Below, piece by piece: positions 1-19,967 of a DNA stretch of 64,000 bases. Every line of letters starts with the position of its first letter. Positions within the stretch are counted from its first letter, which is position 1. The translations under genes and the position numbers were made by a program. Source of the DNA: an uncultured Gammaproteobacteria bacterium (GTDB lineage: Bacteria > Patescibacteriota > Microgenomatia > UBA12405); assembly GCA_964503465.1 (NCBI GenBank), contig CAZCYZ010000001.1, positions 195,731 through 259,730 on the forward strand, given 5' to 3'. Under the pieces are notes generated by a model that saw only the letters and a program-made list of their open reading frames with translations, was not told the origin of the DNA and ran no database searches.

Positions 1-713
1 TTCCTCGTGTTCAGGAACTTTTTGAGGTCAGAACTCCAAAATTACCTTCCCCATTAGCCGAAGTTGACGGTAAGATCAAAATCAAAGACTCTCTTGATGG
101 CTATGAAATCAAATTAGTAGGCAAAGATAAAACTAATCATTCGAAAACTATTACCTACCTTTTGCCACCCAATGTTACCTTGCTTGTTAATGACGGTGAT
201 CTTGTCGCTGCCGGTACCCAAATTGCTTCCGGATCTCTTGACGTTCGAGAGATTATGGACATCAAAGGTCTTGAGGCCGCCCAAAGATATCTAATCAACA
301 GTATTCAAGCAGTCTACGAATCTCAAGGTATTTCCATTCACGACAAACATCTCGAAGTTATCGTTCGGGAAATGAGTGATAAGGTCAAAATTGAGGATCC
401 TGGCGATACCAACTTCCTTTATGGACAAGTAGTTGCTCGACCGGTATATTCGGCCGAGAACGAGAAAGTCAAGTCCAAAGATGGTAAGTCAGCTAAGGGC
501 AAGAAAGTTCTTTTGGGTCTTATTCAGGCCTCGTTAACTACCAGTTCCTGGTTGTCGGCCGCCTCATTCCAACAGACCACTGGAGTTCTTACCGAAGCAT
601 CTCTGCTGGCCGAAGTCGATAACTTGATCGGACTTAAGGAAAATGTTATTATCGGACGTCTTATTCCAGTAGGGAAGAATCAAACTATTTCCGAGGTTGA
701 TAACTCCGACTAA
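1..713 (+). CDS. rpoC: DNA-directed RNA polymerase beta' subunit, C-terminal fragment (5'-truncated by window edge)
   Basis: In-frame translation from nt 3 ([15 protein letters not shown]...[10 protein letters not shown]) matches the conserved RpoC C-terminus; it is immediately followed by rpsL-rpsG as in the str operon. Confidence 0.85.
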
Positions 714-720
714 ATTCTTT

Positions 721-1143
721 ATGCCAACATTTAATCAACTAATCCGCAAAGGCCGCATTCGTCGACAACTAAAGCTCAAAACAGCGGCTCTTCGTGATAA
801 TTTTAATAGCATCAAAAATCGCCGGATCAAAACTTTAAACCCTCAAAAGAAGGGTGTCGTCACTGTTGTCAAAACTATGACCCCCAAAAAGCCACACTCG
901 GCACTTCGTAAAGTTGCCAAAGTCAGGCTTAGTAATCGTGATTTGGTTACCGCTTATATCCCCGGTATTGGTCATAATCTGGCCGAACATGGTATAGTTT
1001 CCGTTCGAGGCGGTCGCGTCCGAGACTTGCCTGGTGTTCGTTATCATATTGTTCGAGGGAAGTTTGATGCCTCTGGAGTTGCTGGTCGGCTTCAGTCCCG
1101 CAGCAAATACGGCGCCAAACGCCCTGCCGCCTCCTCCACCTAA
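721..1143 (+). CDS. rpsL: 30S ribosomal protein S12
   Basis: [12 protein letters not shown]...[10 protein letters not shown] is the canonical S12 sequence; start taken at the ATG at 721 inside the longer ORF 697..1143. Confidence 0.95.
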
Positions 1144-1147
1144 ATAA

Positions 1148-1180
1148 AAATTTTAAATTATAAATTAGAAATTAATCAAA
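1148..1180. repeat. AT-rich repeat motif, copy immediately upstream of rpsG
   Basis: aaaattttaaattataaattagaaattaa; the 15-mer taaattagaaattaa also occurs at 11766 and 38587. Confidence 0.6.
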
Positions 1181-1666
1181 GTGTCACGCAAAGGACCAAG
1201 CAAAATTCGTCACCACCAGCCCGATCCGGTTTTTCAAAGTGCTCTAGTCACCCAACTTATCAATAAGGTTATGCTTCAGGGCAAAAAAGATGCCGCCCAA
1301 AAACAGGTTTATCAGACTCTCTCCCTTTTCAAAAAAGAGATTCCCAAAGATAGTGACCTTCTAACTACTCTTGAACAAGCCCTAGATAATATCAAGCCTC
1401 GAGTTGAGGTTCGGCCGCGAAGAATTGGCGGTGCGGTTTATCAGGTCCCTACTCCTGTTCGAGGACATCGTCAAACTTCTCTCGCCCTCCGATGGTTAAT
1501 TACTGCTTCTCGGGCCAAACCCAACAAACAGTTTCATACTTTTGCCGAAAAACTTAATTCCGAATTAGTTTTAGCTCTCAAAAACGAAGGATCTGCTATT
1601 TCCAAACGGCTCGAAGTCGAACGTATGGCCGAAGCCAACAAGGCTTTTGCGCATTTGAGATGGTAA
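1181..1666 (+). CDS. rpsG: 30S ribosomal protein S7 (GTG start)
   Basis: SRKGPSKIRHHQPDPVF...AFAHLRW is typical S7; GTG start. Confidence 0.95.
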   Translation: MSRKGPSKIRHHQPDPVFQSALVTQLINKVMLQGKKDAAQKQVYQTLSLFKKEIPKDSDLLTTLEQALDNIKPRVEVRPRRIGGAVYQVPTPVRGHRQTSLALRWLITASRAKPNKQFHTFAEKLNSELVLALKNEGSAISKRLEVERMAEANKAFAHLRW

Positions 1667-1672
1667 AGCCAA

Positions 1673-1716
1673 TCTTGCCGCAGTCCCGATCGTAGCATCG
1701 GGGCAAGGCTTTTGCG
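1673..1716 (+). terminator. Intrinsic terminator hairpin after rpsG
   Basis: cttgccgcagtcccgatcg-tagc-atcggggcaagg stem-loop followed by cttttg. Confidence 0.55.
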
Positions 1717-1749
1717 CATCTTCGTTGGTAATTGTGTTAACATTGTTTA

Positions 1750-3177
1750 ATGTCGTTTCTCTCCAAACGGACCTGTGTTGTTTGGCCGCACAAATCAACA
1801 GTTGACGTTTATCTTGACAATAAAGACACCAATCCAACCTCTTTTGAGCTTAACATTTGGCAATCTATATCTTCTGTCGATCTGGCCCCGTTGATTACTT
1901 TCTTTAAGGACAACCATGTTGCTTCAATATCAGTCTTGATTCCCGACGATGTTATTGTCACCAAGTCATTTGTCTATGATGCCAAAATCACCTCTGTCGA
2001 TACTGATGAAGTCGTCAAGCTGGCCGTTGGTACTACCAGCTTTGACATTACCGCCGAGTCAATTAATTTCAACCTAATCCCCCAGGGTGACAAGACTATC
2101 ATCCGCTCCGAATTCTCCGACCTACCAAAAATCACCAATCTCAAACAAAATATCGCCAATCTCGGTGTTAAGGTAGATATCTTTCAAACAGTATCAACTT
2201 CTGTGGCCAAAGCCATATCCACTTTTTATCAACAGGAATATTTCCTCCTTTACACCCTCAATCTCAACGAATCGTTTTTAATACTTTCGTCAGGCGAATC
2301 GGTCTATCTTACTAATTGTCTAAAAAAGTCAGCTCTTAATATTCAAAAACTTATCAACTACTCCAAACTGTATTTCAATCACACCGTCGAAAAAATATTC
2401 TTGCCCGCCAACAACCCTCCCGAGGTCAGTTCCACCTCAAAGCTTGATAAGACTTTTTATGATCCTGTCCAAATTGCCAACTCACTTCACCTTCCCAGCA
2501 CTCTCCCTTTACCAGTTTTGGGCTTGCTACTTGCTCCAAAAACTAGTAACATTACTATTAGTAAACCTATGACTGATAATCTCCCTCCTCCCACCATTAC
2601 CCCCCAAAACGACAGTCCCAAGAATATTCTTCCCATTATCGCCGTTTTCATTATTACTGCTGCCGTTGCTTCCATCGCCATTTGGTTTGTTCTTAATCGT
2701 AATCAACCAGATGGTTTGACCACTCCTTCGGGTCAGCAGGAACCAACCCCGATAATAACCGAGGCACCCACTGTTGCTCCCACTCCTACCTCTCCGCCGA
2801 TTGATAAAAAACTTAAGCTCCAAGTTCTCAATGCTACCGACATCAATGGCCAAGCCGCCACCCTTAAGGCTATTTTAATCGAACTCGGTTTCGAAAATGT
2901 TACTGTTGGTAATAGTAAAGAAAAAGTTACCGGTAACGAAATTCGTTTCAAACCCTCACTTTTGGCCGTCGAAACCTATTTCCAACCTCAACTTGTCACT
3001 CGTTTTCCAGCCAAGTACTCCTCAGCACTTAAAGAAACTTCCACCTACGATGTTGTTTTTGTCATTGGTAGTGATCTTTCCAAACCTACTGCTGCCACTA
3101 GTACTTCACCTACCGAATCAACTTCTACTCCGACCATTAAAACCTCTCCTTCTCCCTCTCCTACTCTCGCTCCATAG
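1750..3177 (+). CDS. Membrane protein with C-terminal LytR_C (cell-envelope) domain, Pro/Thr-rich linker and one TM helix; N-terminal cytoplasmic domain of unknown function
   Basis: TM segment ILPIIAVFIITAAVASIAIWFVL; C-terminal LKLQVLNATDINGQAATLKAILIELGFENVTVGN resembles the LytR_C domain; PT/ST-rich low-complexity stretches. Confidence 0.55.
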   Translation: MSFLSKRTCVVWPHKSTVDVYLDNKDTNPTSFELNIWQSISSVDLAPLITFFKDNHVASISVLIPDDVIVTKSFVYDAKITSVDTDEVVKLAVGTTSFDITAESINFNLIPQGDKTIIRSEFSDLPKITNLKQNIANLGVKVDIFQTVSTSVAKAISTFYQQEYFLLYTLNLNESFLILSSGESVYLTNCLKKSALNIQKLINYSKLYFNHTVEKIFLPANNPPEVSSTSKLDKTFYDPVQIANSLHLPSTLPLPVLGLLLAPKTSNITISKPMTDNLPPPTITPQNDSPKNILPIIAVFIITAAVASIAIWFVLNRNQPDGLTTPSGQQEPTPIITEAPTVAPTPTSPPIDKKLKLQVLNATDINGQAATLKAILIELGFENVTVGNSKEKVTGNEIRFKPSLLAVETYFQPQLVTRFPAKYSSALKETSTYDVVFVIGSDLSKPTAATSTSPTESTSTPTIKTSPSPSPTLAP

Positions 3178-3182
3178 TTTCC

Positions 3183-3890
3183 ATGAAAGGTATTATCCTA
3201 GCAGGAGGTAAAGCTACCCGTCTTCGCCCATTGACTTGGGTTATCAGTAAACAACTCCTTCCGGTTTACAATCAGCCGATGATTTACTATCCAATTCAAA
3301 CCCTGATTCGGGCCGGTATCACCGATATTCTTCTTATCATCGCCCCCGAAAATTCGGGCATGTTTCTTAATCTTTTAGGAACTGGTGAAGATTTTGGAGC
3401 TCATTTTAGTTATGCCGTTCAAAAAGAACCCCGTGGTTTAGCCGACGCTTTTATTATTGGAGCCGATTTTATTGACCACGATAATGTTACTATGATTTTG
3501 GGTGATAATATTTTCGATCCAAGTTTTATCGCCGACGTCAGAAAGTTCCATGGAGGAGCCCAAATTTATGCCAAAAAAGTACCCGATCCTCAACGTTATG
3601 GTGTCGTTGAGTTTGATCATAACCTAAAAGCAATTTCAATCGAAGAAAAACCTCAAAAACCAAAAAGTGACTATGCTGTTGTTGGTCTTTATACCTACGA
3701 CTCACGGGTTATTAATTATGCCAAAAACCTCCGCCCCTCAACTCGAAACGAAATCGAGATTACCGACCTAAACAACCTCTATCTTCAAAATAACGAGCTA
3801 CATGTTTCCATCATCGACAGTTATTGGCAAGACGCTGGTACTTTTGATAGTTTGCTTGAGGCTGGTAATTACATGTCTTCAATCAGATGA
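3183..3890 (+). CDS. rfbA: Glucose-1-phosphate thymidylyltransferase (short form)
   Basis: MKGIILAGGKATRLRPLT...QLLPVYNQPMIYYPI nucleotidyltransferase signature; first of a contiguous rfbABCD block. Confidence 0.85.
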   Translation: MKGIILAGGKATRLRPLTWVISKQLLPVYNQPMIYYPIQTLIRAGITDILLIIAPENSGMFLNLLGTGEDFGAHFSYAVQKEPRGLADAFIIGADFIDHDNVTMILGDNIFDPSFIADVRKFHGGAQIYAKKVPDPQRYGVVEFDHNLKAISIEEKPQKPKSDYAVVGLYTYDSRVINYAKNLRPSTRNEIEITDLNNLYLQNNELHVSIIDSYWQDAGTFDSLLEAGNYMSSIR

Positions 3891-4906
3891 AACTTCTAAT
3901 CACCGGGGGCCTTGGTTTTATTGGTAGCAATTTCATTCGTTATTGGCTCAAACATCATTCTGCCGACCAGGTTACAAACTTAGATTGCATCACCTATGCC
4001 GCCAATCCACATAGTCTCTTAGATCTTGAAGCCAACCCCAATTACAAATTCATTAAAGGTAATATTCTTGATCCCGAACTTTTGGACCGGATCATTCCAG
4101 GCACGGATTTGATTGTCCACTTTGCCGCTGAGTCTCATGTTGATCGTTCTATCGATGATCCATTTCTGTTTGTCAAAACCAATGTTTTAGGTACCTACAC
4201 CCTCCTTTCTGCCGCCAAAGAATACGGTAACATCCGTTTTCACCACATTTCCACTGACGAAGTTTTTGGCTCCATTATTCCCGGCATAGTCGACATTTTT
4301 AGTGAAAACACCCCCTACAATCCATCCTCTCCCTACTCTGCTTCCAAGGCCTCATCCGATCACTTTGTCAGGTCGTTTGGCAAAACGTTCTCCCTACCGA
4401 TTACCATTAGTAACTGCTCCAATAATTACGGTCCCTATCAACACCCCGAAAAAATGATTCCCAGAATGATTACCAATCTTATTGATGATAAAAAAATTCC
4501 GGTTTATGGTCGGGGTGATAACTATCGTGACTGGTTGTATGTTGACGATCACTGTTCGGCCATTGAAGCCATCATCGATCGAGGAACAGTCGGTCAAACA
4601 TATTGTATCGGTGGTCTTAAGGAAACCACTCGTAATATTGATCTCGTTAAGCAAACAATCAAACTTATGGGTAAAAGTGAAGACCAAATTGAATTCGTCC
4701 CTGATCGCCCAGCCCACGACAATTATGCCGTTGACTGGACCAAAATCCATCACGAGCTGGGTTGGCAGCCGCAAGAAACATTAACCACCGGCTTGCAGAA
4801 AACTATCGATTGGTATCTTTCCCATCAATCTTGGTGGCGAACTGCCAAAATCGAAGCCGAAAGTTTCTATAAAAAACTTAATAATTATCAAACTATTAAC
4901 CGATGA
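3887..4906 (+). CDS. rfbB: dTDP-glucose 4,6-dehydratase
   Basis: MKLLITGGLGFIGSNF... YxxxK SDR motif (PYSASKAS); 4-nt overlap with rfbA. Confidence 0.9.
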   Translation: MKLLITGGLGFIGSNFIRYWLKHHSADQVTNLDCITYAANPHSLLDLEANPNYKFIKGNILDPELLDRIIPGTDLIVHFAAESHVDRSIDDPFLFVKTNVLGTYTLLSAAKEYGNIRFHHISTDEVFGSIIPGIVDIFSENTPYNPSSPYSASKASSDHFVRSFGKTFSLPITISNCSNNYGPYQHPEKMIPRMITNLIDDKKIPVYGRGDNYRDWLYVDDHCSAIEAIIDRGTVGQTYCIGGLKETTRNIDLVKQTIKLMGKSEDQIEFVPDRPAHDNYAVDWTKIHHELGWQPQETLTTGLQKTIDWYLSHQSWWRTAKIEAESFYKKLNNYQTINR

Positions 4907-5460
4907 AATTTATCGAATCATCTCAAATCTCCGACCTTTTTTTAATCAAACCAGAAACTTTTGGTGATAATCGGGGTAATTTCTTTGAGTCATATAGCCA
5001 AAGACTTTTCCACGATGCCGGTATCAAGGCTGATTTTGTTCAAGACAATCAATCTTTTTCTTCCCAGCAAGGAACTCTGCGTGGACTTCATTTCCAAAAA
5101 GGCGAATTTGCCCAAGCCAAATTGGTTCGAGTGGTACAGGGTGCGATTTTTGACGTTGCTGTCGATCTTAGGCCGGAATCCTCCTCCTTTGGCCAGTGGG
5201 AGGGTTATGAACTTTCCGGCGAAACCAACAATATGTTGTTTATTCCTCGTGGTTTTGCTCATGGTTTTATTACTCTTACCCCAAACGTTTTCTTTATCTA
5301 CAAATGTGACAATTATTACCACAAGATCTCCGAAGGTGGAATTATTTGGAATGATCAAACTTTAGGAGTAAAATGGCCACTTACAATCGAACCGATATTG
5401 TCAAAGAAAGATAAATTACTTGCCACCTTCAAAGAATACAAATTAAATCCAGCATTCTAA
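4903..5460 (+). CDS. rfbC: dTDP-4-dehydrorhamnose 3,5-epimerase
   Basis: FGDNRGNFFESY...GTLRGLHFQ cupin epimerase motifs. Confidence 0.9.
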   Translation: MKFIESSQISDLFLIKPETFGDNRGNFFESYSQRLFHDAGIKADFVQDNQSFSSQQGTLRGLHFQKGEFAQAKLVRVVQGAIFDVAVDLRPESSSFGQWEGYELSGETNNMLFIPRGFAHGFITLTPNVFFIYKCDNYYHKISEGGIIWNDQTLGVKWPLTIEPILSKKDKLLATFKEYKLNPAF

Positions 5461-6335
5461 TGTCAATTCTTGGCACTGGTCTTTCGGGACTTGTTGGTTC
5501 ACGAATAGTTGAGCTAAATCCTCAATACGAATTTATCGACATTTCCCTCGAATCAGGCTTTGATATATTAAATCCGGGATCTTTAAATAAGGTTTTTCAA
5601 AATTTTACCGGTGACACTGTCATTCATCTGGCCGCTTTTACCGACACCAACTCTGCTTGGGAACAACGTGGTGACCACAACGGTCTTTGTTACCAACTTA
5701 ACGTTGTTGGTACCCAGAACATCCTGGATCTCTGTCAAAAATACAAAAAATACTTGATTTATTTTTCGACAGATTTTGTTTTTGATGGAACCAAAAAGGG
5801 AAGTTATCTTGAAACCGATACTCCCAACCCCATTGAGTGGTATGGCCACACCAAATGTCTTGCCGAAAAACTAATTCAACAATCAGGCCACCCTGCCACC
5901 ATTATCCGTATTGCCTATCCCTATCGTAGCCACTTTGATGCCAAGTCTGACATTGTTCGCAAAATTATCACCAAGTTCCAAAATGGTGAGAATTTGAAAA
6001 TGTTTACCGATCAAACTACCACTCCCACCTTTATCGATGACATTGCGCTCGGTTTACAGCATTTCTTTACTCACCAGCCAGTCGGTATTTATCATTTAGT
6101 CGGCTCCTCATCACAATCACCCTATGATCTTGCCGTTCTCATTGCCGATATTTTTCACCTAAACAAAAATCAACTTCAGCCGAGTTCACTTCGTGATTAT
6201 TTGGTTGCAAATCCTCCCCCCGCTCGGCCGTGGCAAATAAATCTTAGCCTTTCGAATCACAAAGTTTATACTTTGGGGATAAAAACGCGAACTATCACTG
6301 ATGGCTTAATGGAACTCAAAAAACAGTTGGGTTGA
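5460..6335 (+). CDS. rfbD: dTDP-4-dehydrorhamnose reductase
   Basis: MSILGTGLSGLVGSRI... RmlD-like SDR; completes the dTDP-L-rhamnose pathway. Confidence 0.85.
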   Translation: MSILGTGLSGLVGSRIVELNPQYEFIDISLESGFDILNPGSLNKVFQNFTGDTVIHLAAFTDTNSAWEQRGDHNGLCYQLNVVGTQNILDLCQKYKKYLIYFSTDFVFDGTKKGSYLETDTPNPIEWYGHTKCLAEKLIQQSGHPATIIRIAYPYRSHFDAKSDIVRKIITKFQNGENLKMFTDQTTTPTFIDDIALGLQHFFTHQPVGIYHLVGSSSQSPYDLAVLIADIFHLNKNQLQPSSLRDYLVANPPPARPWQINLSLSNHKVYTLGIKTRTITDGLMELKKQLG

Positions 6336-6840
6336 CATTTTTTCTCTTTTCTAGCCTCACGATCTCATCCATCGACATGGTCTTAAACTTTACATTAGCC
6401 CGGTCTGGGAAATATATAGCAACTTCTGGACCAATTTCTCTATCAATTCCGTTAATATTCCATTCTAAATCGGGATACCTACCAACAAAACTATGTAAAT
6501 CCATATTTATAACGAATTCAGCGTGTTCAAGTCCTTCGGAGAACTTGTCACCTTCAGCTGGGGCTAAAACTTCAAAGTACTTTATTTCACTACTCTGATA
6601 CTTTAATGGTCGATCCAGCAAATAAATATCCACCGGCCGGTTGCGGATGATATTGTGAGAAATCCGTTTACCATATCCACCCAAAAGCCTACTTATTGAG
6701 TCGTAAGATTTATTCGAGATCGCCCTATAAGCAATATGGTCAAACTTGCATCCTTTAATCTCAATTCCCACACTATCAATATTCTTAAAAACTCTGGCCA
6801 AAAAATTCGTATAATCACCAATTATTTCCTCAACCCTCAT
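6316..6840 (-). CDS. Hypothetical protein, possibly VOC/glyoxalase-like fold
   Basis: 174-aa ORF with FDHIAYR motif; no confident family assignment. Confidence 0.4.
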   Translation of the reverse strand: MRVEEIIGDYTNFLARVFKNIDSVGIEIKGCKFDHIAYRAISNKSYDSISRLLGGYGKRISHNIIRNRPVDIYLLDRPLKYQSSEIKYFEVLAPAEGDKFSEGLEHAEFVINMDLHSFVGRYPDLEWNINGIDREIGPEVAIYFPDRANVKFKTMSMDEIVRLEKRKNVNPTVF

Positions 6841-7969
6841 TGTTAATTATATCAGCCACTATCTCTCCCTCCCTAACCGCAAAGTTCATTCCTCTGTCCT
6901 CAGGATATATTCGAGCAAAGTTCACCTGATAAGTTTTTTTATTAAGCTTCATTTCTGGTACCTTATATCCAGTACTTACTACATGTTGGGCATACTTAAA
7001 GCTAAAAATGGACTTCTGTTCAACTTTCTCAATACCAAAACTTGGAAAAATCTTTTTAAGATAATCAAACCACTCCTTCTCGTCTACTTTTGTTTTTCCA
7101 TATGCCCCCAGATAATAAACATTGTCTCCGCCATAATTTTCCTTGTCTATAAAATTAGTGTGCTGAATAAAGGCCAAAAAAGGGGATTGGGTATCGTTTA
7201 TATTGTGCCAATAATACTTTGACAGGTTCTGTTTACTGGTAAAAACCAGACACACTGCTGGCAGGTAGTCTATTCTCTTAATTGGAGCGCTGGTTATTAT
7301 CTTGTCAAAGTTTTTTTCCTCTTTAAGCTCTGTCCCCAACTTTATTGCTCCACCGTTCGCTTTAATTCTTTTTGCCAGTTCATCGGTTACCTGTTGGAAT
7401 CCTCCCATTAAGTAACCCAAACCCCCGCTTCCTCTAGTATGAATCCTGGCCCACATCCAGGCCATAGAGACATCTCTGTATCTATCATTAAATTTGCCCC
7501 GTAACAGTGGTTCCCATACCACCTTGTAAGCTCTTCTCCCGCACCACTTTTCCATCCACTCTGCCGCTGTTACTTTTTCAAATTTCTTCCAATTGCGCTC
7601 TTTTTCCAGATAAATTTTTACTAGCCCTAACCTTAACTTGTCCATTAGCCCCAGTGGTTTAAATCGGAACAAGTCCACTGCCCCAGCAAACGGATAAACC
7701 TGACTATCATAATAAATTGCCGTCACATCTTTTCGCCAAACTAATTTGTCAATCAGCCCCAATTCTTTTACCAGAGCTATATAGTCTTTGTCTTTTCTAA
7801 AAATATGATGATATGTTTTTTCTAGATTTGTTCCATTTATTTCAAATCCTCCTGCCAGTCCCCCTAGTTCTTTTTCCTTTTCAAAAACCGTTATCTTGTG
7901 TCCCTCTTGGCTCAACCTATACCCAGCTACTAATCCCGTTAGCCCCCCTCCCACAATTGCTATTTTCAT
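6830..7969 (-). CDS. NAD(P)/FAD-dependent oxidoreductase (amine-oxidase / protoporphyrinogen-oxidase-like Rossmann N-terminus)
   Basis: MKIAIVGGGLTGLVAGYRL...VFEKEKELGG dinucleotide-binding motif; 379 aa. Confidence 0.65.
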   Translation of the reverse strand: MKIAIVGGGLTGLVAGYRLSQEGHKITVFEKEKELGGLAGGFEINGTNLEKTYHHIFRKDKDYIALVKELGLIDKLVWRKDVTAIYYDSQVYPFAGAVDLFRFKPLGLMDKLRLGLVKIYLEKERNWKKFEKVTAAEWMEKWCGRRAYKVVWEPLLRGKFNDRYRDVSMAWMWARIHTRGSGGLGYLMGGFQQVTDELAKRIKANGGAIKLGTELKEEKNFDKIITSAPIKRIDYLPAVCLVFTSKQNLSKYYWHNINDTQSPFLAFIQHTNFIDKENYGGDNVYYLGAYGKTKVDEKEWFDYLKKIFPSFGIEKVEQKSIFSFKYAQHVVSTGYKVPEMKLNKKTYQVNFARIYPEDRGMNFAVREGEIVADIINNEG

Positions 7970-8008
7970 AATTGGATCAATTCTACCAAAGTTGTGCTAT
8001 AAATCACC

Positions 8009-8206
8009 ATGAACCGTCCAGACTGGATAAGAGGAATGTCAGACCAGCAGCTTAGGCAATTTGTTAACAACTCTGGTCAGTTGCTTAATCTTTACGAGCA
8101 TCAGCGGAAACCCGATGCCGCTACCATAGTTCGTCACCATATGGCCATGGCCTGGGAAGAACAATTATCTCGCCGAAAGCCTTCCCCATTTTCCAACCAT
8201 TCTTAG
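8009..8206 (+). CDS. Small hypothetical protein (65 aa)
   Basis: ORF followed by the hairpin ccccgcagccgcgggg + T-run at 8232-8256; no homology recognised. Confidence 0.3.
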   Translation: MNRPDWIRGMSDQQLRQFVNNSGQLLNLYEHQRKPDAATIVRHHMAMAWEEQLSRRKPSPFSNHS

Positions 8207-8275
8207 TGTGTTATCATCATTCACCCGACCCCGCAGCCGCGGGGCCACAGTTTTTATTTTGTATACTAACTAACT

Positions 8276-10387
8276 ATGGCCGATGCCATCAAACTTTCTA
8301 AAAATCGCGACGTTCCCATGGACAAGGTTCGCAATATTGGTATCATTGCCCACATTGACGGCGGTAAAACCACTACTACTGAACGACTTTTATTTTATAC
8401 TGGAAAAATCCACAAAATAGGTTCAGTTGACGAAGGTACTACTACTACTGATAGTATGGTCCAGGAGCGGGAGCGGGGGATTACCATTCAATCAGCCTGC
8501 ATTACTACTTTTTGGAAAGATTTTCGTATTAATATTATTGATACCCCCGGTCATGTCGATTTTACTGCCGAAGTCGAGCGCTCGCTTCGTGTTCTTGACG
8601 GCGCCATCATGATCTTTGATGGTAATGCTGGTGTTCAGGCGCAGTCGGAAACTGTTTGGCGTCAAGCCGACAAATATCATGTTCCTCGAATTGCTTTTGT
8701 CAACAAAATGGACAAAATTGGTGCCTCATTCCAGAAAACGCTTGAGTCAATCACAGCTAAGCTTCGTGCTCCAATCGTTCCAATGGTTCTTCCTGTCGGT
8801 GAGGAACACGCTCACATTGGTGTCATCGATCTTATGGAAATGAAAATGATTGTTTACGACAAAGACGAGGAGGGGATGGAATTTACTATCAAAGATGTTA
8901 CCCCAGAATATTTAGACTCTGCCACCAAAGCTCGTCATCTTATGGTCGAAAAAATCGCTGGTGAGGACGAAGTGCTGATGGAGAAATTTTTAAATGATCA
9001 GGAAATTACTGTTCCGGAACTTAAAGTTGCTCTTCGTAAAGCCTGTATTGATCGAAAATTATTTCCGGTTTTTTGTGGTGCTGCTTGGCGCAACAAAGGT
9101 ATTCATCCAATTCTTGACGCTATTATTGACTATCTTCCTTCCCCGCTTGATTTGCCCCCAATTGAGGGTTTTGATGTTAATACCCAGGAAAAGATTGCTC
9201 GTAAACCTCTCAAGAATGAACCATTTTCTGGTATGTTGTTCAAGGTTCAATCCGACCCTCATGTTGGTACTCTTTCTTACGTCCGTGTCTATTCCGGAAC
9301 CCTCAAAGCTGGCTCCGAAGTTTACAACGCTACTCGCCAAAAGAGTGAACGAATTGGTCGTTTGTTATTGATGCATGCCGACAAACGTGAAGGGATTGAA
9401 GAAGGTTATGCTGGTGAAATAATTGCCTGTATTGGCCTTAAGGAATCCTACACTGGTGACACTCTCTGTGATCGAACCCAGCCAATTTCTTTGTCTCCTA
9501 TTCAATTTCCTGACCCGGTTATTTCTCTTAGTATCGAACCGGTAACCACCGACGATCAGGAAAAAATGGGCCAGGCTCTTAATCGTCTCGCTATCGAAGA
9601 TCCAACTTTTAAGGTTTCCTACAACCACGAAACCGGCCAAAGCATCATTGCCGGTATGGGTGAACTTTACTTGGAAATTGTCGTCGATCGTCTCAACCGC
9701 GAGTTCGGTGTCAAGGTCAAAACTGGTGCTCCCCAAGTTGCTTATCGGGAAACCATTTCTATTAATGCCGAGGGTGAGGGTAAGTACATTCACCAATCCG
9801 GTGGTCATGGTCAGTATGGTCACTGTAAGATCCGCATCGAACCAAAAAACCGCGGCGAGGGTGTTGAATTTGTCAATGCCGTCAAGGGTGGAGCAATTCC
9901 TAGTAATTTTATTCCTGCCATTGAAAAAGGTATTCGCGAAAGCCTTCAAAAAGGTATTATTGCCGGTTACCCTGCTACTGACCTCAAAGTTACTGTTTAT
10001 GACGGTACTTATCACGAGGTTGATTCGTCCGAAATGGCCTTTAAATTGGCCGGTTCCTATGCTATCAAGGATGCCTTCGAAGCCGCCAAGCCATTGGTTT
10101 TAGAGCCTATCATGAAGCTTGAGGTTGCCTGTCCGTCAGATTTCTTAGGTACAGTCATGGGCGATCTTTCCTCTCGACGTGGCCAAATTACTGGCACTAC
10201 TGAAAGTTTTGGTTTCACTACTATTCTGGCCCTTATCCCTCTTGAGGCCATTCGTGGTTATGCCACCATCATTCGTTCTCTTACTCAGGGAAGGGGATCT
10301 TTCTATATGGAACCAAGCCATTATGATCCAGTCCCCGCCAACGTCCAGGCCCAACTTGTTCTAGCAAAAAATGGAGGCAAGCAGTAA
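8276..10387 (+). CDS. fusA: Elongation factor G
   Basis: AHIDGGKTTTTERLL... GTPase motifs and full-length EF-G architecture (703 aa). Confidence 0.97.
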   Translation: MADAIKLSKNRDVPMDKVRNIGIIAHIDGGKTTTTERLLFYTGKIHKIGSVDEGTTTTDSMVQERERGITIQSACITTFWKDFRINIIDTPGHVDFTAEVERSLRVLDGAIMIFDGNAGVQAQSETVWRQADKYHVPRIAFVNKMDKIGASFQKTLESITAKLRAPIVPMVLPVGEEHAHIGVIDLMEMKMIVYDKDEEGMEFTIKDVTPEYLDSATKARHLMVEKIAGEDEVLMEKFLNDQEITVPELKVALRKACIDRKLFPVFCGAAWRNKGIHPILDAIIDYLPSPLDLPPIEGFDVNTQEKIARKPLKNEPFSGMLFKVQSDPHVGTLSYVRVYSGTLKAGSEVYNATRQKSERIGRLLLMHADKREGIEEGYAGEIIACIGLKESYTGDTLCDRTQPISLSPIQFPDPVISLSIEPVTTDDQEKMGQALNRLAIEDPTFKVSYNHETGQSIIAGMGELYLEIVVDRLNREFGVKVKTGAPQVAYRETISINAEGEGKYIHQSGGHGQYGHCKIRIEPKNRGEGVEFVNAVKGGAIPSNFIPAIEKGIRESLQKGIIAGYPATDLKVTVYDGTYHEVDSSEMAFKLAGSYAIKDAFEAAKPLVLEPIMKLEVACPSDFLGTVMGDLSSRRGQITGTTESFGFTTILALIPLEAIRGYATIIRSLTQGRGSFYMEPSHYDPVPANVQAQLVLAKNGGKQ

Positions 10388-10400
10388 GATCAATTTCGCC

Positions 10401-10429
10401 TTGCATTGAAGGTAAACTGCTGATACAAT
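10401..10429 (+). promoter_or_regulatory. Sigma70-like promoter upstream of tuf (TTGCAT-17nt-TACAAT)
   Basis: ttgcat at 10401-10406 and tacaat at 10424-10429 with a 17-nt spacer. Confidence 0.5.
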
Positions 10430-10503
10430 CTTAAAGCGTTTTTTGTTACACTTTAATTGTTACTTTTTCTCCCGCAAGTCCGGGACAAAACATCTAAAAA
10501 ACT

Positions 10504-11679
10504 ATGGCAGACAACAAGTTTGTAAGAAACAAACCGCATCTTAACGTTGGTACTATTGGTCATGTTGACCATGGAAAAACTACCTTAACAGCGGCAATTA
10601 CTAAGATTCAAGGTAATCCAAAATCATATGCCGACATCGCCAAGGGCGGTACCGTTCGTGATGCCAGCAAAATCGTTACCATCGCTATTTCTCACGTTGA
10701 ATACGAAACCGACAAGCGACACTATGCTCACATTGACTGCCCTGGACATGCCGACTATGTCAAAAACATGATTACCGGTGCGGCTCAAATGGATGGTGCT
10801 ATCCTTGTCGTCTCTGCTCCTGATGGTCCCATGCCTCAGACCCGGGAACACGTTCTTCTGGCCAACCAAGTTAATGTCCCCAATCTAGTGGTTTACCTTA
10901 ACAAAGTTGATCTGGTCACTGATCCGGAATTTTTGGATCTAGTCGAAATGGAAATCCGTGAACTTCTCAAAAAATACCAGTATCCCGGTGACGAAATTCC
11001 TATCATTCGAGGTTCAGCTCTCAAAGCTCTTGAAGGTGATCCTGCCGGTGTCGAGTCCATCAAAAAGCTTCTAGAGGCTCTCGATTCATACATTCCCGAA
11101 CCCAAACGCGAACTTGATCAACCGTTCTTGATGCCAATTGAAGACGTTTTTTCAATTAAAGGTCGTGGCACCGTTGCCACCGGTAGAATTGAACGCGGTG
11201 TCATTAAAGTCAACGAGGAAGTCGAGATTGTCGGTCTCAACGCTACCAAAAAGTGTGTTGTTACCGGTGTCGAAATGTTCCACAAACAACTTGACCAAGG
11301 TCAAGCCGGGGACAATGTTGGTATCCTTCTTCGCGGTATTGAAAAAGACGACATTGAACGTGGTCAGGTCTTATCAAAACCTGGCACTATTACTCCTCAC
11401 ACCGAATTTAAGGCTGAAATTTACCTTCTCAAAAAAGAAGAAGGTGGTCGACACACCCCAGTTTTCACTGGTTATCGTCCTCAAGTCTTTATTCGTACCA
11501 CCGATGTCACCGGCGAGGTTACTCTGCCAAGTGGTGTCGAAATGGTCATGCCAGGGGATAATGCCACTGTTTCAGTTAAATTAATTAAACCAGTAGCTAT
11601 GGAAAAAGGACAACGTTTTGCTATCCGTGAGGGTGGTTTAACTGTTGGTGCCGGTGCCATAGTTGAGATCATCAAATAA
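10504..11679 (+). CDS. tuf: Elongation factor Tu
   Basis: [13 protein letters not shown]...[26 protein letters not shown]. Confidence 0.97.
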
Positions 11680-11695
11680 ACCAAGGAATCAATAC

Positions 11696-11728
11696 CCCGT
11701 TCCGAAAGCTTTCGGAACGGGGTTTTCA
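11696..11728 (+). terminator. Intrinsic terminator after tuf
   Basis: ccccgttccgaaagctttcggaacgggg perfect hairpin followed by tttt. Confidence 0.8.
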
Positions 11729-11745
11729 AAAAAAGCACCTTAACT

Positions 11746-11784
11746 TATTTTAAAAATCAAACTTATAAATTAGAAATTAAATTA
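11746..11784. repeat. AT-rich repeat motif, copy immediately upstream of rpsJ
   Basis: tattttaaaaatcaaacttataaattagaaattaaatt. Confidence 0.6.
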
Positions 11785-11789
11785 ACGGT

Positions 11790-12101
11790 ATGGCCAAGGG
11801 AAATCATATTCGTATTAAGCTCAAATCCTTCGATCATCGCATCATTGATGAAGCCGCCGTTAAGATTGTTGAAACCGCCGTTACCGCTGGCGCCACTATT
11901 CAAGGACCAATTCCTCTGCCTACCTCAAAAAAAACCATCGTTATCCTTACCAGTCCTCATACTGACAAAAATGCCCGTGATCATTTCCAAATATCTACTC
12001 ACAAAAGACTAATCGATATTAGCAACGCCAGTGTTAGGACAATTGACAGCCTTCAGCACCTTGATCTCCCTTCCGGCGTTGAGGTTGAAGTTAAAATGTA
12101 A
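11790..12101 (+). CDS. rpsJ: 30S ribosomal protein S10
   Basis: IRIKLKSFDHRIIDEA... S10 signature. Confidence 0.95.
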   Translation: MAKGNHIRIKLKSFDHRIIDEAAVKIVETAVTAGATIQGPIPLPTSKKTIVILTSPHTDKNARDHFQISTHKRLIDISNASVRTIDSLQHLDLPSGVEVEVKM

Positions 12102-12103
12102 CT

Positions 12104-12712
12104 ATGATTACCGGATTTGTTGCCAAAAAACTTTCCATGACCAACGTCTATCAAGACAATGGCATTAGGATCTCCGCTACTCGCTGTTTTTGCCCCGATC
12201 TTACCGTTACCCAGATCAAACCGGCTTCTATTCAGATTGCCTATGGTATCAAGAAAAAACAAAACCAAGCAGTTGCTGGTTTCTTGAAAAAATCCAAACT
12301 AAAAATTACCCCCCAGCACTTTAAAGAATTTCAAAAAATTGCCAATCAACCCATTGCTGTTGGAGATCAAATCACTATTGATTCTGTTTTTCAGCCCGGC
12401 GAGACCGTTAATGTCACTGGTATCAGTAAAGGTCGTGGTTTTGCTGGTGTTATCAAGCGATACGGCTTCCATCGCCAACCAGTGTCTGGTGGCCAATCGG
12501 ATCGTGTCCGAGCTCCCGGTGCCATTGGCGCCCAAACTCCTGGTAAAGTCTTAAAGGGTAAAAAAATGCCGGGGCACTATGGGAATGCTACTGCCACTGT
12601 TACTGGTCTAAAAATTCTCTCTTTTGATCCAGTCAACCATCAGGTTCTCATTAATGGACCAATTCCAGGTCATTTTAATTCTTGGGTTATTATCAACAAA
12701 GTCAAAAATTAG
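12104..12712 (+). CDS. rplC: 50S ribosomal protein L3
   Basis: Conserved position after rpsJ; L3-like sequence FRAPGAIGAQTPGKV. Confidence 0.9.
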   Translation: MITGFVAKKLSMTNVYQDNGIRISATRCFCPDLTVTQIKPASIQIAYGIKKKQNQAVAGFLKKSKLKITPQHFKEFQKIANQPIAVGDQITIDSVFQPGETVNVTGISKGRGFAGVIKRYGFHRQPVSGGQSDRVRAPGAIGAQTPGKVLKGKKMPGHYGNATATVTGLKILSFDPVNHQVLINGPIPGHFNSWVIINKVKN

Positions 12713-15130: not shown

Positions 15131-15772
15131 ATGGGTCAAAAAGTTAATCCTCTAAGCTTTCGGCTTGAAACTTCTGCAACCGCTCCTCGGTGGCAGTCTT
15201 CTTGGTATGCCGGAACTGGTAAATACGCCAAATATCTTCTTGAGGACAAAAAAATCCGTGATTTTCTTGAAAAGAAATTATCCGCCGCCGGAATTGTTTC
15301 CATCAGAATTGAACGTTCTAATAAAAAAGTAAAAATTACTCTTGTCGTTAGTCGACCCGGATTGGTTATTGGACGAGGCGGCAAAGAACTAGAAATAATC
15401 AAACTTGGCGTTCAAAAACTTCTTCCCAAATCAGTCGGTAAACAAAGTCTTGAGATCCAAGTCGAAGAATTCCGCCATGTTGATTTGTCGGCCAAACTTA
15501 TCGCCGAAAAAATTGCCTACCAACTAACTAAACGTCTACCTTATCGTCGAGTTGTTCTTTCTTCCATGGAAAAAGCCATTGGTAGCGGGGCCAAAGGAAT
15601 TAAAGTTATTCTTGGAGGTCGTATCAATGGAGCTGAAATCAGCCGTCGCGAAAAGTTTTCCCAGGGAACAGTTCCTCTTAGCACTCTCCGTTCTCGAATT
15701 GATTATTTTGAATGTCCTTCACTAACTCGCTCCGGCTATATTGGTGTTAAAGTTTACCTTTGTTTAGATTAA
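15131..15772 (+). CDS. rpsC: 30S ribosomal protein S3
   Basis: MGQKVNPLSFRL...KH domain; conserved position. Confidence 0.95.
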   Translation: MGQKVNPLSFRLETSATAPRWQSSWYAGTGKYAKYLLEDKKIRDFLEKKLSAAGIVSIRIERSNKKVKITLVVSRPGLVIGRGGKELEIIKLGVQKLLPKSVGKQSLEIQVEEFRHVDLSAKLIAEKIAYQLTKRLPYRRVVLSSMEKAIGSGAKGIKVILGGRINGAEISRREKFSQGTVPLSTLRSRIDYFECPSLTRSGYIGVKVYLCLD

Positions 15773-15773
15773 T

Positions 15774-16178
15774 ATGCTTCAGCCTAGTCGCACCAAATAT
15801 AGAAAACAGTTTCGGGGTCGAATGCGTGGCCAATCCGCCGGTAATCTAGTTGCTTTTGGTGAATATGGCCTTAAGTCTCTTTCTTGCGGTTGGATCTCAA
15901 GCAATCAGATTGAAGCTGCCCGTAAAAGTATTTCTCATGCTACCAAAAGAAATGGCCGTCTTTGGATCCGTGTCTTTCCCGATAAACCTATTACTCAAAA
16001 AGGTGCCGGGGCCCCACTTGGAGCTGGTAAAGGTGATGTTAAAGGCTACGTTGCCGTCATTCGACCTGGTCGAGTTATGTTTGAAGTTTCCGGAATTTCC
16101 GATACTGAAGCTCACCGTGCCCTTAATCTTGCTGCCGCCAAGTTATCAGTTTCAACTAAAGTAATCAAACGACTTTAG
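15774..16178 (+). CDS. rplP: 50S ribosomal protein L16
   Basis: MLQPSRTKYRKQFRGRMRG. Confidence 0.95.
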   Translation: MLQPSRTKYRKQFRGRMRGQSAGNLVAFGEYGLKSLSCGWISSNQIEAARKSISHATKRNGRLWIRVFPDKPITQKGAGAPLGAGKGDVKGYVAVIRPGRVMFEVSGISDTEAHRALNLAAAKLSVSTKVIKRL

Positions 16179-16188
16179 TCAAAATTCT

Positions 16189-16392
16189 ATGAAGAAATCT
16201 GATAAAATCTCCTACCACCAAAAAGATATTGCTAGTCTTACCAAATTAATATCTGACCTAAACCAAAAACTGGTCGAAAGTAAAGCCAAACAGCAACTCG
16301 GTGGTCTCAAGGATACTTCGGTTTTTAAGAAAATTAAATACGAGATTGCTCTGGTTCAGAGCCTAATTTCATCCAAACATGACTCCAAATAA
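16189..16392 (+). CDS. rpmC: 50S ribosomal protein L29
   Basis: 67 aa, coiled-coil L29-like; conserved position. Confidence 0.85.
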   Translation: MKKSDKISYHQKDIASLTKLISDLNQKLVESKAKQQLGGLKDTSVFKKIKYEIALVQSLISSKHDSK

Positions 16393-16678
16393 TCCCAAAA
16401 CAGGCTTGCCTCGACGTAGTCCAAATACTTTGGAGACGAAGGCGGGTAAAACCTTTACCGGTCAAGTAGTTTCAAGCAAAATGGCCAACACCATTGTCGT
16501 TTCCATGGACTATCAACGTCGCCATCCTCTCTACAAAAAAATTATTCGTAAATCCAAAAAAATCTATGCCGACAACAACCTTTCCGCTACAGTGGGGGAT
16601 ATTGTCAAAGTTCGCGAAACTCGACCATTAAGTAAACTTAAGCGTTTTACTACCATCGAAATTATTCAAAAGAATTAA
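16379..16678 (+). CDS. rpsQ: 30S ribosomal protein S17
   Basis: TFTGQVVSSKMANTIVV...IVKVRETRPLSK. Confidence 0.9.
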   Translation: MTPNNPKTGLPRRSPNTLETKAGKTFTGQVVSSKMANTIVVSMDYQRRHPLYKKIIRKSKKIYADNNLSATVGDIVKVRETRPLSKLKRFTTIEIIQKN

Positions 16679-16683
16679 TATCC

Positions 16684-17052: not shown

Positions 17053-17057
17053 ACTCT

Positions 17058-17384: not shown

Positions 17385-17386
17385 CT

Positions 17387-17923: not shown

Positions 17924-17960
17924 TGAAATTAAAATCTATTTATTCAACTCACCGAGCTAA

Positions 17961-18000
17961 CTCCCTGCCCTGTCAAGGGAAGGGTGGGGGAAGGGTTTTG
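17961..18000. repeat. G-rich hairpin element, copy 1 (CCCTGCC..TCAAGGGAAGGG + GGGGGAAGGGTTTTG)
   Basis: Shares the CAAGGGA(G/A)GGG arm and the G-tract+TTTTG tail with copies at 23128, 39714, 40081 and 54887. Confidence 0.6.
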
Positions 18001-18008
18001 TAACTCTT

Positions 18009-18194: not shown

Positions 18195-18199
18195 CAAAT

Positions 18200-19482: not shown

Positions 19483-19491
19483 AACTGATCT

Positions 19492-19950: not shown

Positions 19951-19967
19951 TTATCATCTTAACACCT

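Follow-up and report, generated by a model that had tools for sequence, protein, structure and literature searches.

A cell-envelope gene block between rpsG and fusA as a likely inherited trait in Candidatus Shapirobacteria

The window, i.e. the whole 64,000-nt stretch of DNA that was analysed, comes from an ultra-small bacterium of the Candidatus Shapirobacteria type and contains the ribosomal protein gene rpsG and the elongation factor gene fusA separated by 6609 nt (stop codon to start codon). Upstream of them the reading frame of rpsL (ribosomal protein S12, Pfam PF00164) covers positions 697-1143 of the plus strand and opens at a TTG at 697. The true start is likely the ATG at 721 (gene at 721-1143), since it gives the usual MPT... 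N-terminus and a length of 140 aa as in the relatives, where the S12 genes encode 140-141 aa in all loci but one. The left boundary of the block is formed by rpsG itself (ribosomal protein S7; 1181-1666, plus strand; PF00177, 166.9 bits), whose product has its closest named relatives in Candidatus Shapirobacteria. On the right the block is bounded by fusA (EF-G; 8276-10387, plus strand; assigned from open reading frames and Pfam domains), which is followed on the same strand by tuf (10504-11679), rpsJ (11790-12101) and then the S10 operon. Between these boundaries lie a membrane protein gene with a LytR_C domain, the rmlABCD genes and, on the opposite strand, a YecM-family gene of the VOC superfamily and a gene for a FAD-dependent oxidoreductase. 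Every gene named in the original prediction was found where it had been placed, and profile searches confirmed the identities assigned to them. In GC content the block (0.35-0.44) differs little from its flanks (0.41-0.47), such that the composition carries no sign of foreign DNA.

The four rml genes are tightly packed on the plus strand: rmlA (glucose-1-phosphate thymidylyltransferase, 3183-3890), rmlB (dTDP-glucose 4,6-dehydratase, 3887-4906), rmlC (dTDP-4-dehydrorhamnose 3,5-epimerase, 4903-5460) and rmlD (dTDP-4-dehydrorhamnose reductase, 5460-6335), with overlaps of 4, 4 and 1 nt as had been predicted. The equivalog cut-offs were passed by RmlB (TIGR01181; 448 bits, cut-off 365.1) and RmlC (TIGR01221; 225.6 bits, cut-off 155.75). 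RmlA and RmlD were assigned from Pfam only (PF00483, 212.6 bits, and PF04321, 172.6 bits), their scores against TIGR01207 (308 bits, cut-off 360.65; positions 1-239 of 286 aligned) and TIGR01214 (167.9 bits, cut-off 224.05) being too low. The rmlA product is a short form of 235 aa. At its 3' end rmlD overlaps yecM tail-to-tail by 20 nt. Synthesis of dTDP-rhamnose is reported to be conserved in Microgenomatia and common in CPR classes that include it (PMC9166423).

The gene directly after rpsG (1750-3177, plus strand) encodes a protein in which the LytR_C domain (PF13399) matches residues 355-442 (E 1.4e-7). An AlphaFold2 model (pLDDT 81.7) contains one transmembrane helix at residues 294-316. 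It is preceded by an actin-like domain (about residues 4-265) and followed by a Pro/Thr linker, the LytR_C domain (355-445) and a Ser/Thr/Pro tail, such that the protein is predicted to be bitopic with the actin-like domain in the cytoplasm and the LytR_C domain outside the cell. Foldseek searches with the N-terminal half returned PilM (5eoy, E 5.7e-11), FtsA and EpsL/GspL (1yf5, TMt 0.58). The Pfam search detected neither a catalytic LCP domain nor a sequence-level match to the PilM or GspL families. The earlier description as a LytR-type wall-polymer attachment domain is thus not supported: only the accessory LytR_C part is present, joined to a PilM/GspL/FtsA-like actin fold. LytR_C is a domain without known function that elsewhere accompanies wall-polymer ligases (PMC11481543). 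The full-length family has 291 members, of which the named ones are from Shapirobacteria in all but two cases, and a search of 1.84 billion proteins with the N-terminal domain matched no more than 34 representative clusters. By these sequence searches the family is lineage-specific.

The structural matches raise the possibility that this protein is no wall-glycopolymer factor but belongs to the platform of a type IV pilus, of a machine resembling type II secretion or of the divisome, and that its linkage to the rml genes is incidental. Not only the fold of the cytoplasmic domain but also the order of parts, with one transmembrane helix and an outer alpha/beta domain, corresponds to GspL and to PilM-PilN pairs. 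Against this, the resemblance does not extend to the Pfam level, and neither the block nor the called genes around it in the relatives include pilus or secretion genes. Moreover, the outer domain is the one known as a companion of wall-polymer ligases, and in every locus rml genes come after this gene, either at once or with one to four small hypothetical genes in between. We regard a platform or divisome function as unlikely and favour a place for the protein in a cell-envelope module.

Of the two genes on the minus strand, the one nearer to fusA (6830-7969) encodes a FAD enzyme of the amine-oxidase superfamily (PF01593, 71.8 bits) that passes the cut-off of NCBIfam NF005560 (PRK07233; 380.4 bits, cut-off 252). 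Its orthologues are 57-80% identical, and the subclade to which it belongs falls short of most of them by about 20-60 residues. In an AlphaFold2 model (pLDDT 91.4) the flavoprotein looks like a phytoene desaturase or protoporphyrinogen oxidase in fold, the Foldseek matches including rice phytoene desaturase (5mog, TMq 0.83) and Myxococcus protoporphyrinogen oxidase (2ivd, about 0.8); a fungal UDP-galactopyranose mutase (UGM) appeared at rank 35 (TMq 0.76). The suggestion that the enzyme is UGM-like is not supported, since the Pfam search found no GLF domain (PF03275) and the match to bacterial UGM structures, searched in the PDB by sequence, was confined to the Rossmann segment at residues 2-62 (E about 0.007). 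The second gene, yecM (6316-6840; PF06185, 78.6 bits), shares 11 nt with the upstream FAD-enzyme gene and was encountered in only one of the examined relatives (L082). Divergent promoter-like boxes can be read from the sequence at 7980-8003: the minus-strand box TAGAAT (7985-7980) precedes the FAD-enzyme ATG by 10 nt, and the plus-strand box TGcTATAAA (7995-8003) stands 5 nt ahead of the start codon (ATG) of a 65-aa open reading frame (8009-8206, plus strand). This reading frame, absent from the original description, gave no tblastn match in any compared relative and was seen in this genome only.

The leader of fusA (8209-8260, plus strand) comprises an extended -10-like box TGtTATCAT (8209-8217), a GC hairpin (8229-8244) and a U-run (8251-8260). 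An additional TATACT box (8262-8267) lies 8 nt before the fusA ATG. The layout of box, hairpin and U-run was present in 8 of 10 loci with differing stem sequences, the relatives that share it being L081, L083, L084, L086, L087, L088 and L093. A search of Rfam gave no match for the leader. A terminator-like hairpin directly 3' of a putative promoter is an awkward arrangement for a highly expressed operon.

We compared the rpsG-fusA junction with 14 Candidatus Shapirobacteria-type loci from 13 related genomes (S7 63-78% identical), which were picked by S7 similarity among loci on long contigs and not at random, as well as with 79 loci from distant bacteria; the age and the phylogenetic limits of the arrangement were thus judged from inside the clade and from far outside. 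S7 adjoins EF-G in 72 of the distant loci, in line with the original view that this linkage is near-universal and broken here. In the remaining distant loci S7 is directly followed by EF-Tu without EF-G (four, all from Acetobacteraceae) or the locus is cut by a contig end (three). In the Shapirobacteria-type loci, S7 is followed by the LytR_C protein in 14 out of 14 cases. The minus-strand FAD enzyme precedes EF-G, directly or after a few extra genes, in all nine loci that reach EF-G, and the spacing between S7 and EF-G is 3.9-9.2 kb. The gene content in between varies: rmlA and yecM occur in only a subset of loci, L082 is missing rmlA and rmlB, L092 has kept rmlB as its sole rml gene, and two types of rmlC are found.

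Since the arrangement is common to all 14 related loci, it is ancestral for the lineage. The block is thus probably a trait fixed by inheritance in Candidatus Shapirobacteria (Microgenomates, CPR) and no recent insertion. Seen against other bacteria the block remains a derived insertion, while an insertion event in this particular genome is contradicted. A chimeric assembly of the window is unlikely, given that independent assemblies have the same gene order.

The junction between rpsG and the LytR_C gene was changed in this genome. A 28-nt direct repeat is present at 1639-1666 and 1704-1731, both copies of which encode KAFAHLRW followed by a stop codon (repeat family D1; 86% identity, spacing 65); a 16-mer from it occurs twice with 0.00 occurrences expected. 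The second copy and the next 18 nt match the ancestral rpsG end and short spacer of L081 and L082. This comparison indicates that a duplication of the rpsG 3' end (1639-1731, plus strand) inserted 65 nt into a formerly 18-nt spacer and gave rise to a hairpin at 1677-1709 followed by UUUUG (to 1714), with the 3' arm and the U-tract made from the old rpsG coding end. The 93-nt segment has a minimum free energy of -24.1 kcal/mol, and its centroid structure containing the hairpin has -17.2. The hairpin that had been noted at 1673-1716 is present, but its folding does not stand out from that of shuffled sequence (z -1.15) and the terminator scan passed over it; it may act as an attenuator or a weak terminator. 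In L083, L084, L086 and L091 the rpsG gene is followed by a canonical terminator of hairpin and U-run, and L090 has a likely one whose stem contains mismatches. An extended -10-like box TGtTAACAT (1735-1743, plus strand) lies 6 nt upstream of the LytR_C ATG and is a putative promoter for a leaderless transcript. The consensus TGnTAnnnT is found at -15 or -14 from this ATG in 10 of 15 loci, and the remaining five share another conserved motif, TTTTTGTCCATACTAATA, or a variant close to it. Putative promoters and terminators were assigned from such motifs and from how well they are conserved; across the genome, -10 boxes at 5-6 nt before a start codon are only modestly enriched.

We propose that a module of cell-envelope genes entered the site between rpsG and fusA in an ancestor of the sampled lineage. 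Two end genes would have stayed constant, the LytR_C membrane protein gene after rpsG and the opposite-strand flavoprotein gene upstream of fusA, with the dTDP-L-rhamnose genes between them varying among relatives and other genes being gained and lost. The locus would now be read as three units. The first (plus strand) would comprise the LytR_C gene and rmlABCD, transcribed from the extended -10 box into a leaderless mRNA and fed also by read-through past the weak hairpin after rpsG. Its rml genes would be translationally coupled via their overlapping stop and start codons, and their products would make dTDP-L-rhamnose from glucose-1-phosphate and dTTP. A second unit (minus strand), convergent with the first, would express the FAD enzyme and YecM, and a third (plus strand) fusA-tuf-S10 from its own conserved promoter-like box with hairpin and U-run. 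What the membrane protein, the flavoprotein and YecM do in the cell is likewise inferred. Separate transcription units would mean that the str operon is split for good in this lineage.

The original prediction had instead considered that the envelope genes are co-transcribed with rpsL-rpsG, which would tie the synthesis of a rhamnose polymer to the growth-rate-controlled expression of translation genes. The position directly after rpsG is indeed kept in all 14 loci, and in eight of them S7 and the LytR_C gene are only 9-26 nt apart, too close for a terminator to fit in, so that read-through from rpsG is unavoidable there. Also the hairpin in this genome, with its poor U-tract, is probably leaky. 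However, most loci have a conserved promoter-like box directly upstream of the LytR_C ATG, and rpsG has a clear terminator behind it in four relatives and a likely one in a fifth, such that coupling to growth rate via the str transcript is not conserved. The recent gain of the hairpin here points to insulation rather than coupling, and the variable presence of rml genes (L082, L092) argues that the stoichiometry of the pathway is not tied to the site. Gene order in CPR bacteria is generally stable, and the conserved position need therefore not be selected. We thus consider co-transcription improbable as the basis of the arrangement and keep to separate transcription units; fusA is in any case cut off from rpsG transcription by the minus-strand genes in between.

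That the block is a recent genomic island, transferred horizontally into this genome, is hardly credible: the site does take up extra genes in relatives (an integrase-family gene beside the FAD enzyme in L082, a MFS transporter in L088, DUF202 genes in L084 and, between fusA and tuf, RelB-like genes in L091) and part of its content is patchy, but the core (LytR_C protein, rml genes, FAD enzyme) has the same place and orientation in every relative, its identities among them (36-76%) are such as vertical descent together with S7 and EF-G would give, and block and flanks agree in GC content. Moreover, the block is free of tRNA genes (the window has a single one, at 29134-29209), and a search of the interval 1100-1800 found no direct repeat other than the rpsG-end duplication.

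Among known systems, UGM (Glf) shares with the FAD enzyme the FAD Rossmann segment and the general fold of the superfamily and differs by its GLF domain. The closer relation is to NF005560, a family annotated only as hypothetical, with a whole-chain fold as in phytoene desaturase and protoporphyrinogen oxidase; we know of no description of this family in a conserved position beside rml genes and fusA. The membrane protein resembles LCP (LytR-CpsA-Psr) ligases such as Streptomyces CglA in its extracellular LytR_C domain behind a single transmembrane helix, but has a cytoplasmic actin-like domain of 260 residues in place of the LCP domain. The mycobacterial stand-alone LytR_C protein Cei is a weak model match (26.9 bits, cut-off 150). 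GspL/EpsL, PilM and FtsA share the modelled fold of the N-terminal domain, and GspL would also share the bitopic layout; they differ in sequence (6-13% identity), in the outer domain and in their partner pilus, secretion or division genes, which are not found nearby here. Compared with rmlABCD (rfbABCD) operons, the four enzyme families, their compatibility with the pathway and the tight packing with stop/start overlaps are alike, whereas the short RmlA, the equivalog scores of RmlA and RmlD, the varying gene content among relatives and the lack of an adjacent glycosyltransferase or polymer-export gene are not. PMC6735719 describes multigene insertions between translation operons, and PMC3150367 treats duplicated EF-G genes computationally. 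The str operon has its usual gene order and orientation on both sides of the block here, with rpoBC-rpsL-rpsG to the left and fusA-tuf-S10 to the right. It differs from the canonical operon by a break of several kb inside the operon that contains opposite-strand genes and has the same two boundary genes across the sampled lineage, and by a fusA gene with its own conserved leader.

Few gene orders in bacteria are as stable as rpsL-rpsG-fusA-tuf. In the window this str operon is split by a block of envelope genes, and the gene map given for it in the original prediction was borne out by the ORF list and by profile scans. The end of rpoC (162-713) is followed by rpsL and rpsG (1181-1666, plus strand). 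The mechanically called rpsL ORF (697-1143, plus strand) begins with a TTG at 697 and overlaps the rpoC end; the likely start is the ATG at 721, which provides the canonical MPT... N-terminus and the 140-aa length seen in relatives. Next, all on the plus strand, come the gene for a 475-aa membrane protein with a LytR_C domain (1750-3177; PF13399 at residues 355-442), rmlA (3183-3890), rmlB (3887-4906), rmlC (4903-5460) and rmlD (5460-6335), with overlaps between successive rml genes of 4, 4 and 1 nt. Genes for a YecM/VOC protein (6316-6840) and a FAD oxidoreductase (6830-7969) lie on the minus strand. A plus-strand 65-aa ORF (8009-8206), found in the ORF list and absent from the original prediction, precedes fusA (8276-10387), tuf (10504-11679), rpsJ (11790-12101) and the S10 operon. 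The distance from the rpsG stop to the fusA start is 6609 nt and comprises seven annotated genes, two of them on the opposite strand, as well as the 65-aa ORF. The GC content of the block is similar to that of its flanks.

The ribosomal protein S7 of the window is identical to S7 on a 470-kb contig, and its nearest named relatives (65-77% identity) are all Candidatus Shapirobacteria (Microgenomates, CPR/Patescibacteria). Strains with an S7 81-87% identical (P0002, P0003) are represented by short contigs. Among the matches listed by an S7 scan with one genome per species were one close relative (L001) and 79 distant bacterial loci, the latter serving as baseline. Using 12 exact-protein look-ups we obtained 13 further loci, the S7 of the relatives being 63-78% identical. 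The window proteins were placed in all collected loci by tblastn. The sample covers the clade itself and distant bacteria. EF-G directly follows S7 in 72 of the 79 distant loci, EF-Tu does so in four (Acetobacteraceae), and in three the contig ends there. In the Shapirobacteria-type loci the LytR_C protein directly follows S7 in 14 of 14 cases. Nine of these loci reach EF-G, at 3.9-9.2 kb from S7, and all nine carry the opposite-strand FAD enzyme upstream of fusA, either directly or with few extra genes between. The canonical contiguous operon, with rpsG and fusA immediately adjacent, co-oriented and in a single transcription unit, is found neither in the window nor in any of the 14 related loci. 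The order is derived with respect to other bacteria; within the lineage it is ancestral and, in our sample, universal.

An assembly chimera was rejected since independent assemblies (NCBI, ENA, JGI, Logan) have the same order. A recent island in the window genome was rejected on grounds of synteny and composition. The original prediction had read the block as an insertion, to be given up if related genomes shared the arrangement; the rpsG-fusA junction, when compared across relatives as had been proposed, was found to be broken in 14 of 14, which contradicts a recent insertion.

The two ends of the site are fixed and its interior is open to gene gain and loss. Among the loci compared, rmlA occurs only in the window, L001 and L081. 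In L082, a further relative, rmlA and rmlB are missing, and the genes present include a NUDIX gene, YecM and, adjoining the FAD enzyme, an integrase-family gene (15398-16210); in L092 rmlB is the only rml gene left. In L085, L087, L088 and L093 small hypothetical genes separate the LytR_C gene from rmlB. An MFS transporter gene (17258-18490) precedes fusA in L088, as do DUF202 genes (16614-17217) in L084, and in L091 RelB-like genes (19478-20095) are situated between fusA and tuf. The str region of the Shapirobacteria-type lineage seems to tolerate insertions. The window RmlC is 54-58% identical to RmlC of the more distant relatives L083-L086, only 31-36% identical to that of L001 and L081, and without a tblastn match to that of L082. 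This pattern suggests that rmlC may have been replaced within the cluster. Two rmlC types are present in the lineage, that of the window (4903-5460) and that of L001 (13570-14100), L081 (7181-7750) and L082 (11837-12367). For the 65-aa ORF no homologue was found in any related locus; it may be spurious, or else encode a genuine small protein specific to the lineage. A TGcTATAAA box lies 5 nt before its ATG.

The dTDP-L-rhamnose genes were assigned from profile scores. RmlB (TIGR01181, 448 bits, cut-off 365.1) and RmlC (TIGR01221, 225.6 bits, cut-off 155.75) are members of their equivalog families. RmlA matches PF00483 with 212.6 bits and scores 308.3 bits on TIGR01207, below the cut-off of 360.65. 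It is a short form of 235 aa, with about 47 residues of the TIGR01207 model missing at the C-terminus. The short form is also seen in L001 and L081. RmlD matches PF04321 over its full length (172.6 bits) and scores 167.9 bits on TIGR01214, below the cut-off of 224.05; the gene context supports the assignment. The YecM protein belongs to PF06185 (78.6 bits, cut-off 25), and all its scores against the NCBIfam VOC equivalogs were below cut-off. The rml pathway is common in CPR (PMC9166423). No rhamnosyltransferase gene adjoins the rml genes, and the only other envelope-related genes seen in the window encode BacA (undecaprenyl-diphosphate phosphatase, 27319-28053) and a PMT_2-family glycosyltransferase (46284-48128).

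The original prediction had suggested that envelope synthesis is coupled to growth rate through the str transcript. In eight loci the gap between S7 and the LytR_C gene is only 9-26 nt, such that read-through is unavoidable there. Canonical hairpin-plus-U terminators are present 3' of rpsG in L083, L084, L086 and L091, and a likely one with stem mismatches in L090. In the window a 65-nt insertion has lengthened the gap to 83 nt. The final 28 nt of rpsG occur at two places (1639-1666 and 1704-1731), 65 nt apart and with 86% identity; for the 16-mer shared by the two, the number expected by chance is 0.00. Each copy encodes KAFAHLRW-stop, the Leu and Arg codons differing between them. The second copy together with the next 18 nt matches L081 and L082 at the end of rpsG and in the short spacer behind it; the downstream copy is the ancestral rpsG end. 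The insertion may have arisen by a template switch or by illegitimate recombination. Pairing of the inserted segment with the former coding end gives a hairpin (1677-1709), the short U-tract of which is supplied by the old GCT-TTT-GCG codons. Being followed by UUUUG only, where an intrinsic terminator would have a run of at least 5 U directly behind a stable GC-rich stem, uncalled by the terminator scan and with a folding z of -1.15, this hairpin would be a weak terminator at best. We infer that the linkage of the block to rpsG transcription differs between genomes, the recent change in the window adding an intervening hairpin. This variable linkage and the gained hairpin argue against selection for coupling via the str transcript, and, with the terminators of the relatives, against the suggested growth-rate coupling. 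Read-through from rpsG into the block may still occur.

A box of the sequence TGtTAACAT (1735-1743) is located 6 nt upstream of the LytR_C ATG. Ten of 15 loci have the extended -10 pattern TGnTAnnnT at this offset, and the other five have a different conserved motif common to them all. Shine-Dalgarno sequences are rare among the window genes, and in several cases the first gene of a unit is preceded at 5-8 nt by a -10-like box, which suggests that leaderless mRNAs may be frequent. In the pooled window and relatives, whose orthologues are not independent, -10 boxes 5-6 nt before the ATG were only modestly enriched. We found no paper on leaderless or Shine-Dalgarno usage in Patescibacteria. Hexamers of the -10 type 5-8 nt before the ATG are seen e.g. 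at the starts at 29305, 35887, 37936, 49434, 52114 and 55973. The gene at 52114-53934 (plus strand) encodes a class II aminoacyl-tRNA synthetase (Asp/Lys/Asn type, OB anticodon-binding domain) with a C-terminal YbaK/ProX-type tRNA_edit domain (PF04073, residues 472-590), an unusual fusion.

At the other end of the block, rmlD and the minus-strand gene pair converge, with a tail-to-tail overlap of 20 nt, which places fusA beyond the reach of the rpsL promoter. Upstream of fusA the plus strand contains an extended -10-like TGtTATCAT (8209-8217), a GC hairpin (8229-8244), a U-run (8251-8260) and, at a distance of 8 nt from the fusA ATG, a TATACT (8262-8267). Box, hairpin and U-run are also present 58-95 nt upstream of the fusA start codon in L081 (9735-9785), L083 (17005-17058), L084 (17240-17292), L086 (15659-15710), L087 (19622-19680), L088 (18524-18574) and L093 (about 12400-12460). 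The layout consists of TGnTATCAT, a spacer of 10-14 nt, a hairpin of variable sequence (at least four different stems) and the U-run. In L091 the hairpin is located further upstream, and in L092 no clear hairpin was seen upstream of fusA. When seven fusA leaders were folded singly, the hairpin directly preceded the U-run in all of them (z of -1.5 to -3.8). RNAalifold provided no consensus for the seven, MAFFT being unable to align hairpins of differing sequence. A permissive Rfam search of window positions 1-12500 returned no r-protein leader or fusA-leader match and two chance eukaryotic matches. Possible roles of the element are those of an attenuator, of a stabilising 5' hairpin followed by an AU-rich ribosome-loading leader, or of an insulator before a putative ATG-adjacent promoter (8262-8267).

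To gain insight into the boundary proteins we used profile searches and structure models. The LytR_C domain of the membrane protein (32.8 bits, cut-off 22.2, E 1.4e-7, residues 355-442) is its sole Pfam match at E <= 0.01; the catalytic LCP domain (Pfam LytR_cpsA_psr) is absent. LytR_C accompanies certain LCP ligases and is described as a domain without known function (PMC11481543), and the predicted role as a wall-polymer attachment domain is therefore unsupported. A search with seven aligned orthologues yielded 291 family members, of which the named ones are Shapirobacteria except two. With the N-terminal 265 residues, HMMER found only 34 clusters among 1.84 billion representative proteins; their full-length members have 436-525 aa and the same layout. 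An AlphaFold2 model from 58 sequences (mean pLDDT 81.7) was confident for residues ~4-265, a TM helix (294-316) and the well-folded LytR_C domain (355-445), i.e. an actin-like domain, a TM helix, LytR_C and nothing else. In Foldseek searches against the PDB the cytoplasmic domain showed the actin-like fold with two RNase-H-like subdomains, matching PilM (5eoy_B, E 5.7e-11), FtsA (7q6i, E 6e-10) and the EpsL/GspL cytoplasmic domain (1yf5, target-normalised TM-score 0.58, rmsd 5.9). Sequence identity to these structural matches is 6-13%, and no Pfam model of the PilM, GspL or FtsA families matched at E <= 0.01. Genes for PilN/O/B/C, GspE/F/M or FtsZ were called neither in the block nor in the 20-kb loci of the relatives. 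According to the model the protein is bitopic and scaffold-like, the actin fold lying in the cytoplasm and LytR_C on the outside. Given this architecture and the constant rml neighbourhood, it may connect the wall or a rhamnose polymer with a partner in the cytoplasm.

For the FAD oxidoreductase a UGM-like activity on a nucleotide sugar had been considered. The protein belongs to NF005560 (PRK07233, annotated 'hypothetical protein'; 380.4 bits in two stretches, cut-off 252) and matches Pfam Amino_oxidase with 72 bits; the GLF domain (PF03275) gave no match. Among solved structures, the uncharacterised Pyrococcus protein PF1083 and protoporphyrinogen oxidases are nearest in sequence, and UGM chains in the PDB align to the Rossmann segment 2-62 only (E 0.006-0.007). 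For the structure model (pLDDT 91.4) the best fold matches are rice phytoene desaturase (TM 0.83) and Myxococcus protoporphyrinogen oxidase (TM ~0.8), a fungal UGM being found only at rank 35. The UGM-like assignment does not hold against these data, and a nucleotide-sugar substrate is less likely. Since the closest folds act on hydrophobic substrates (isoprenoid, tetrapyrrole), our guess by analogy would be a lipid or carrier substrate. The best 120 matches of a homologue search were all Shapirobacteria-type orthologues with 57% identity or more; among the matches listed, orthologues in the lineage are 57-80% identical and more conserved than the LytR_C protein.

The break within the str operon fixed across the lineage, the lineage-confined combination of LytR_C with an actin fold and the conserved fusA leader each appear to be new: we found no paper describing them, nor one on rhamnose, synteny or the str operon in Shapirobacteria. 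Fixed across the sampled members, the break provides a clean genomic marker for Candidatus Shapirobacteria, and it indicates that the str operon can be split for good if fusA gains its own control region. Three annotations that come easily to mind are corrected, namely LytR_C as polymer ligase domain, the flavoprotein as galactopyranose mutase and the block as recent insertion. Two uncharacterised lineage-conserved proteins could moreover be relevant to surface construction in ultra-small CPR cells.

A selected lineage-specific arrangement is conceivable, in which the PilM/GspL-like LytR_C protein as envelope scaffold and the phytoene-desaturase-like flavoprotein as lipid- or carrier-modifying enzyme would be kept beside the translation genes, the leader serving as a new attenuator that controls fusA-tuf-S10 after their separation from rpsL-rpsG; taken as a whole, we consider this reading rather improbable. 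The L4-controlled S10 leader of E. coli would be the model for the mode of such an attenuator. Current understanding is not overturned by our results, the main use of which lies in CPR annotation and comparative genomics. Operon disruption by insertion is already known (PMC6735719). Each component is of a known kind: the rml pathway (PMC9166423), LytR_C, the actin-fold scaffold, the amine-oxidase-superfamily flavoprotein and the insertion-split operon (PMC6735719).
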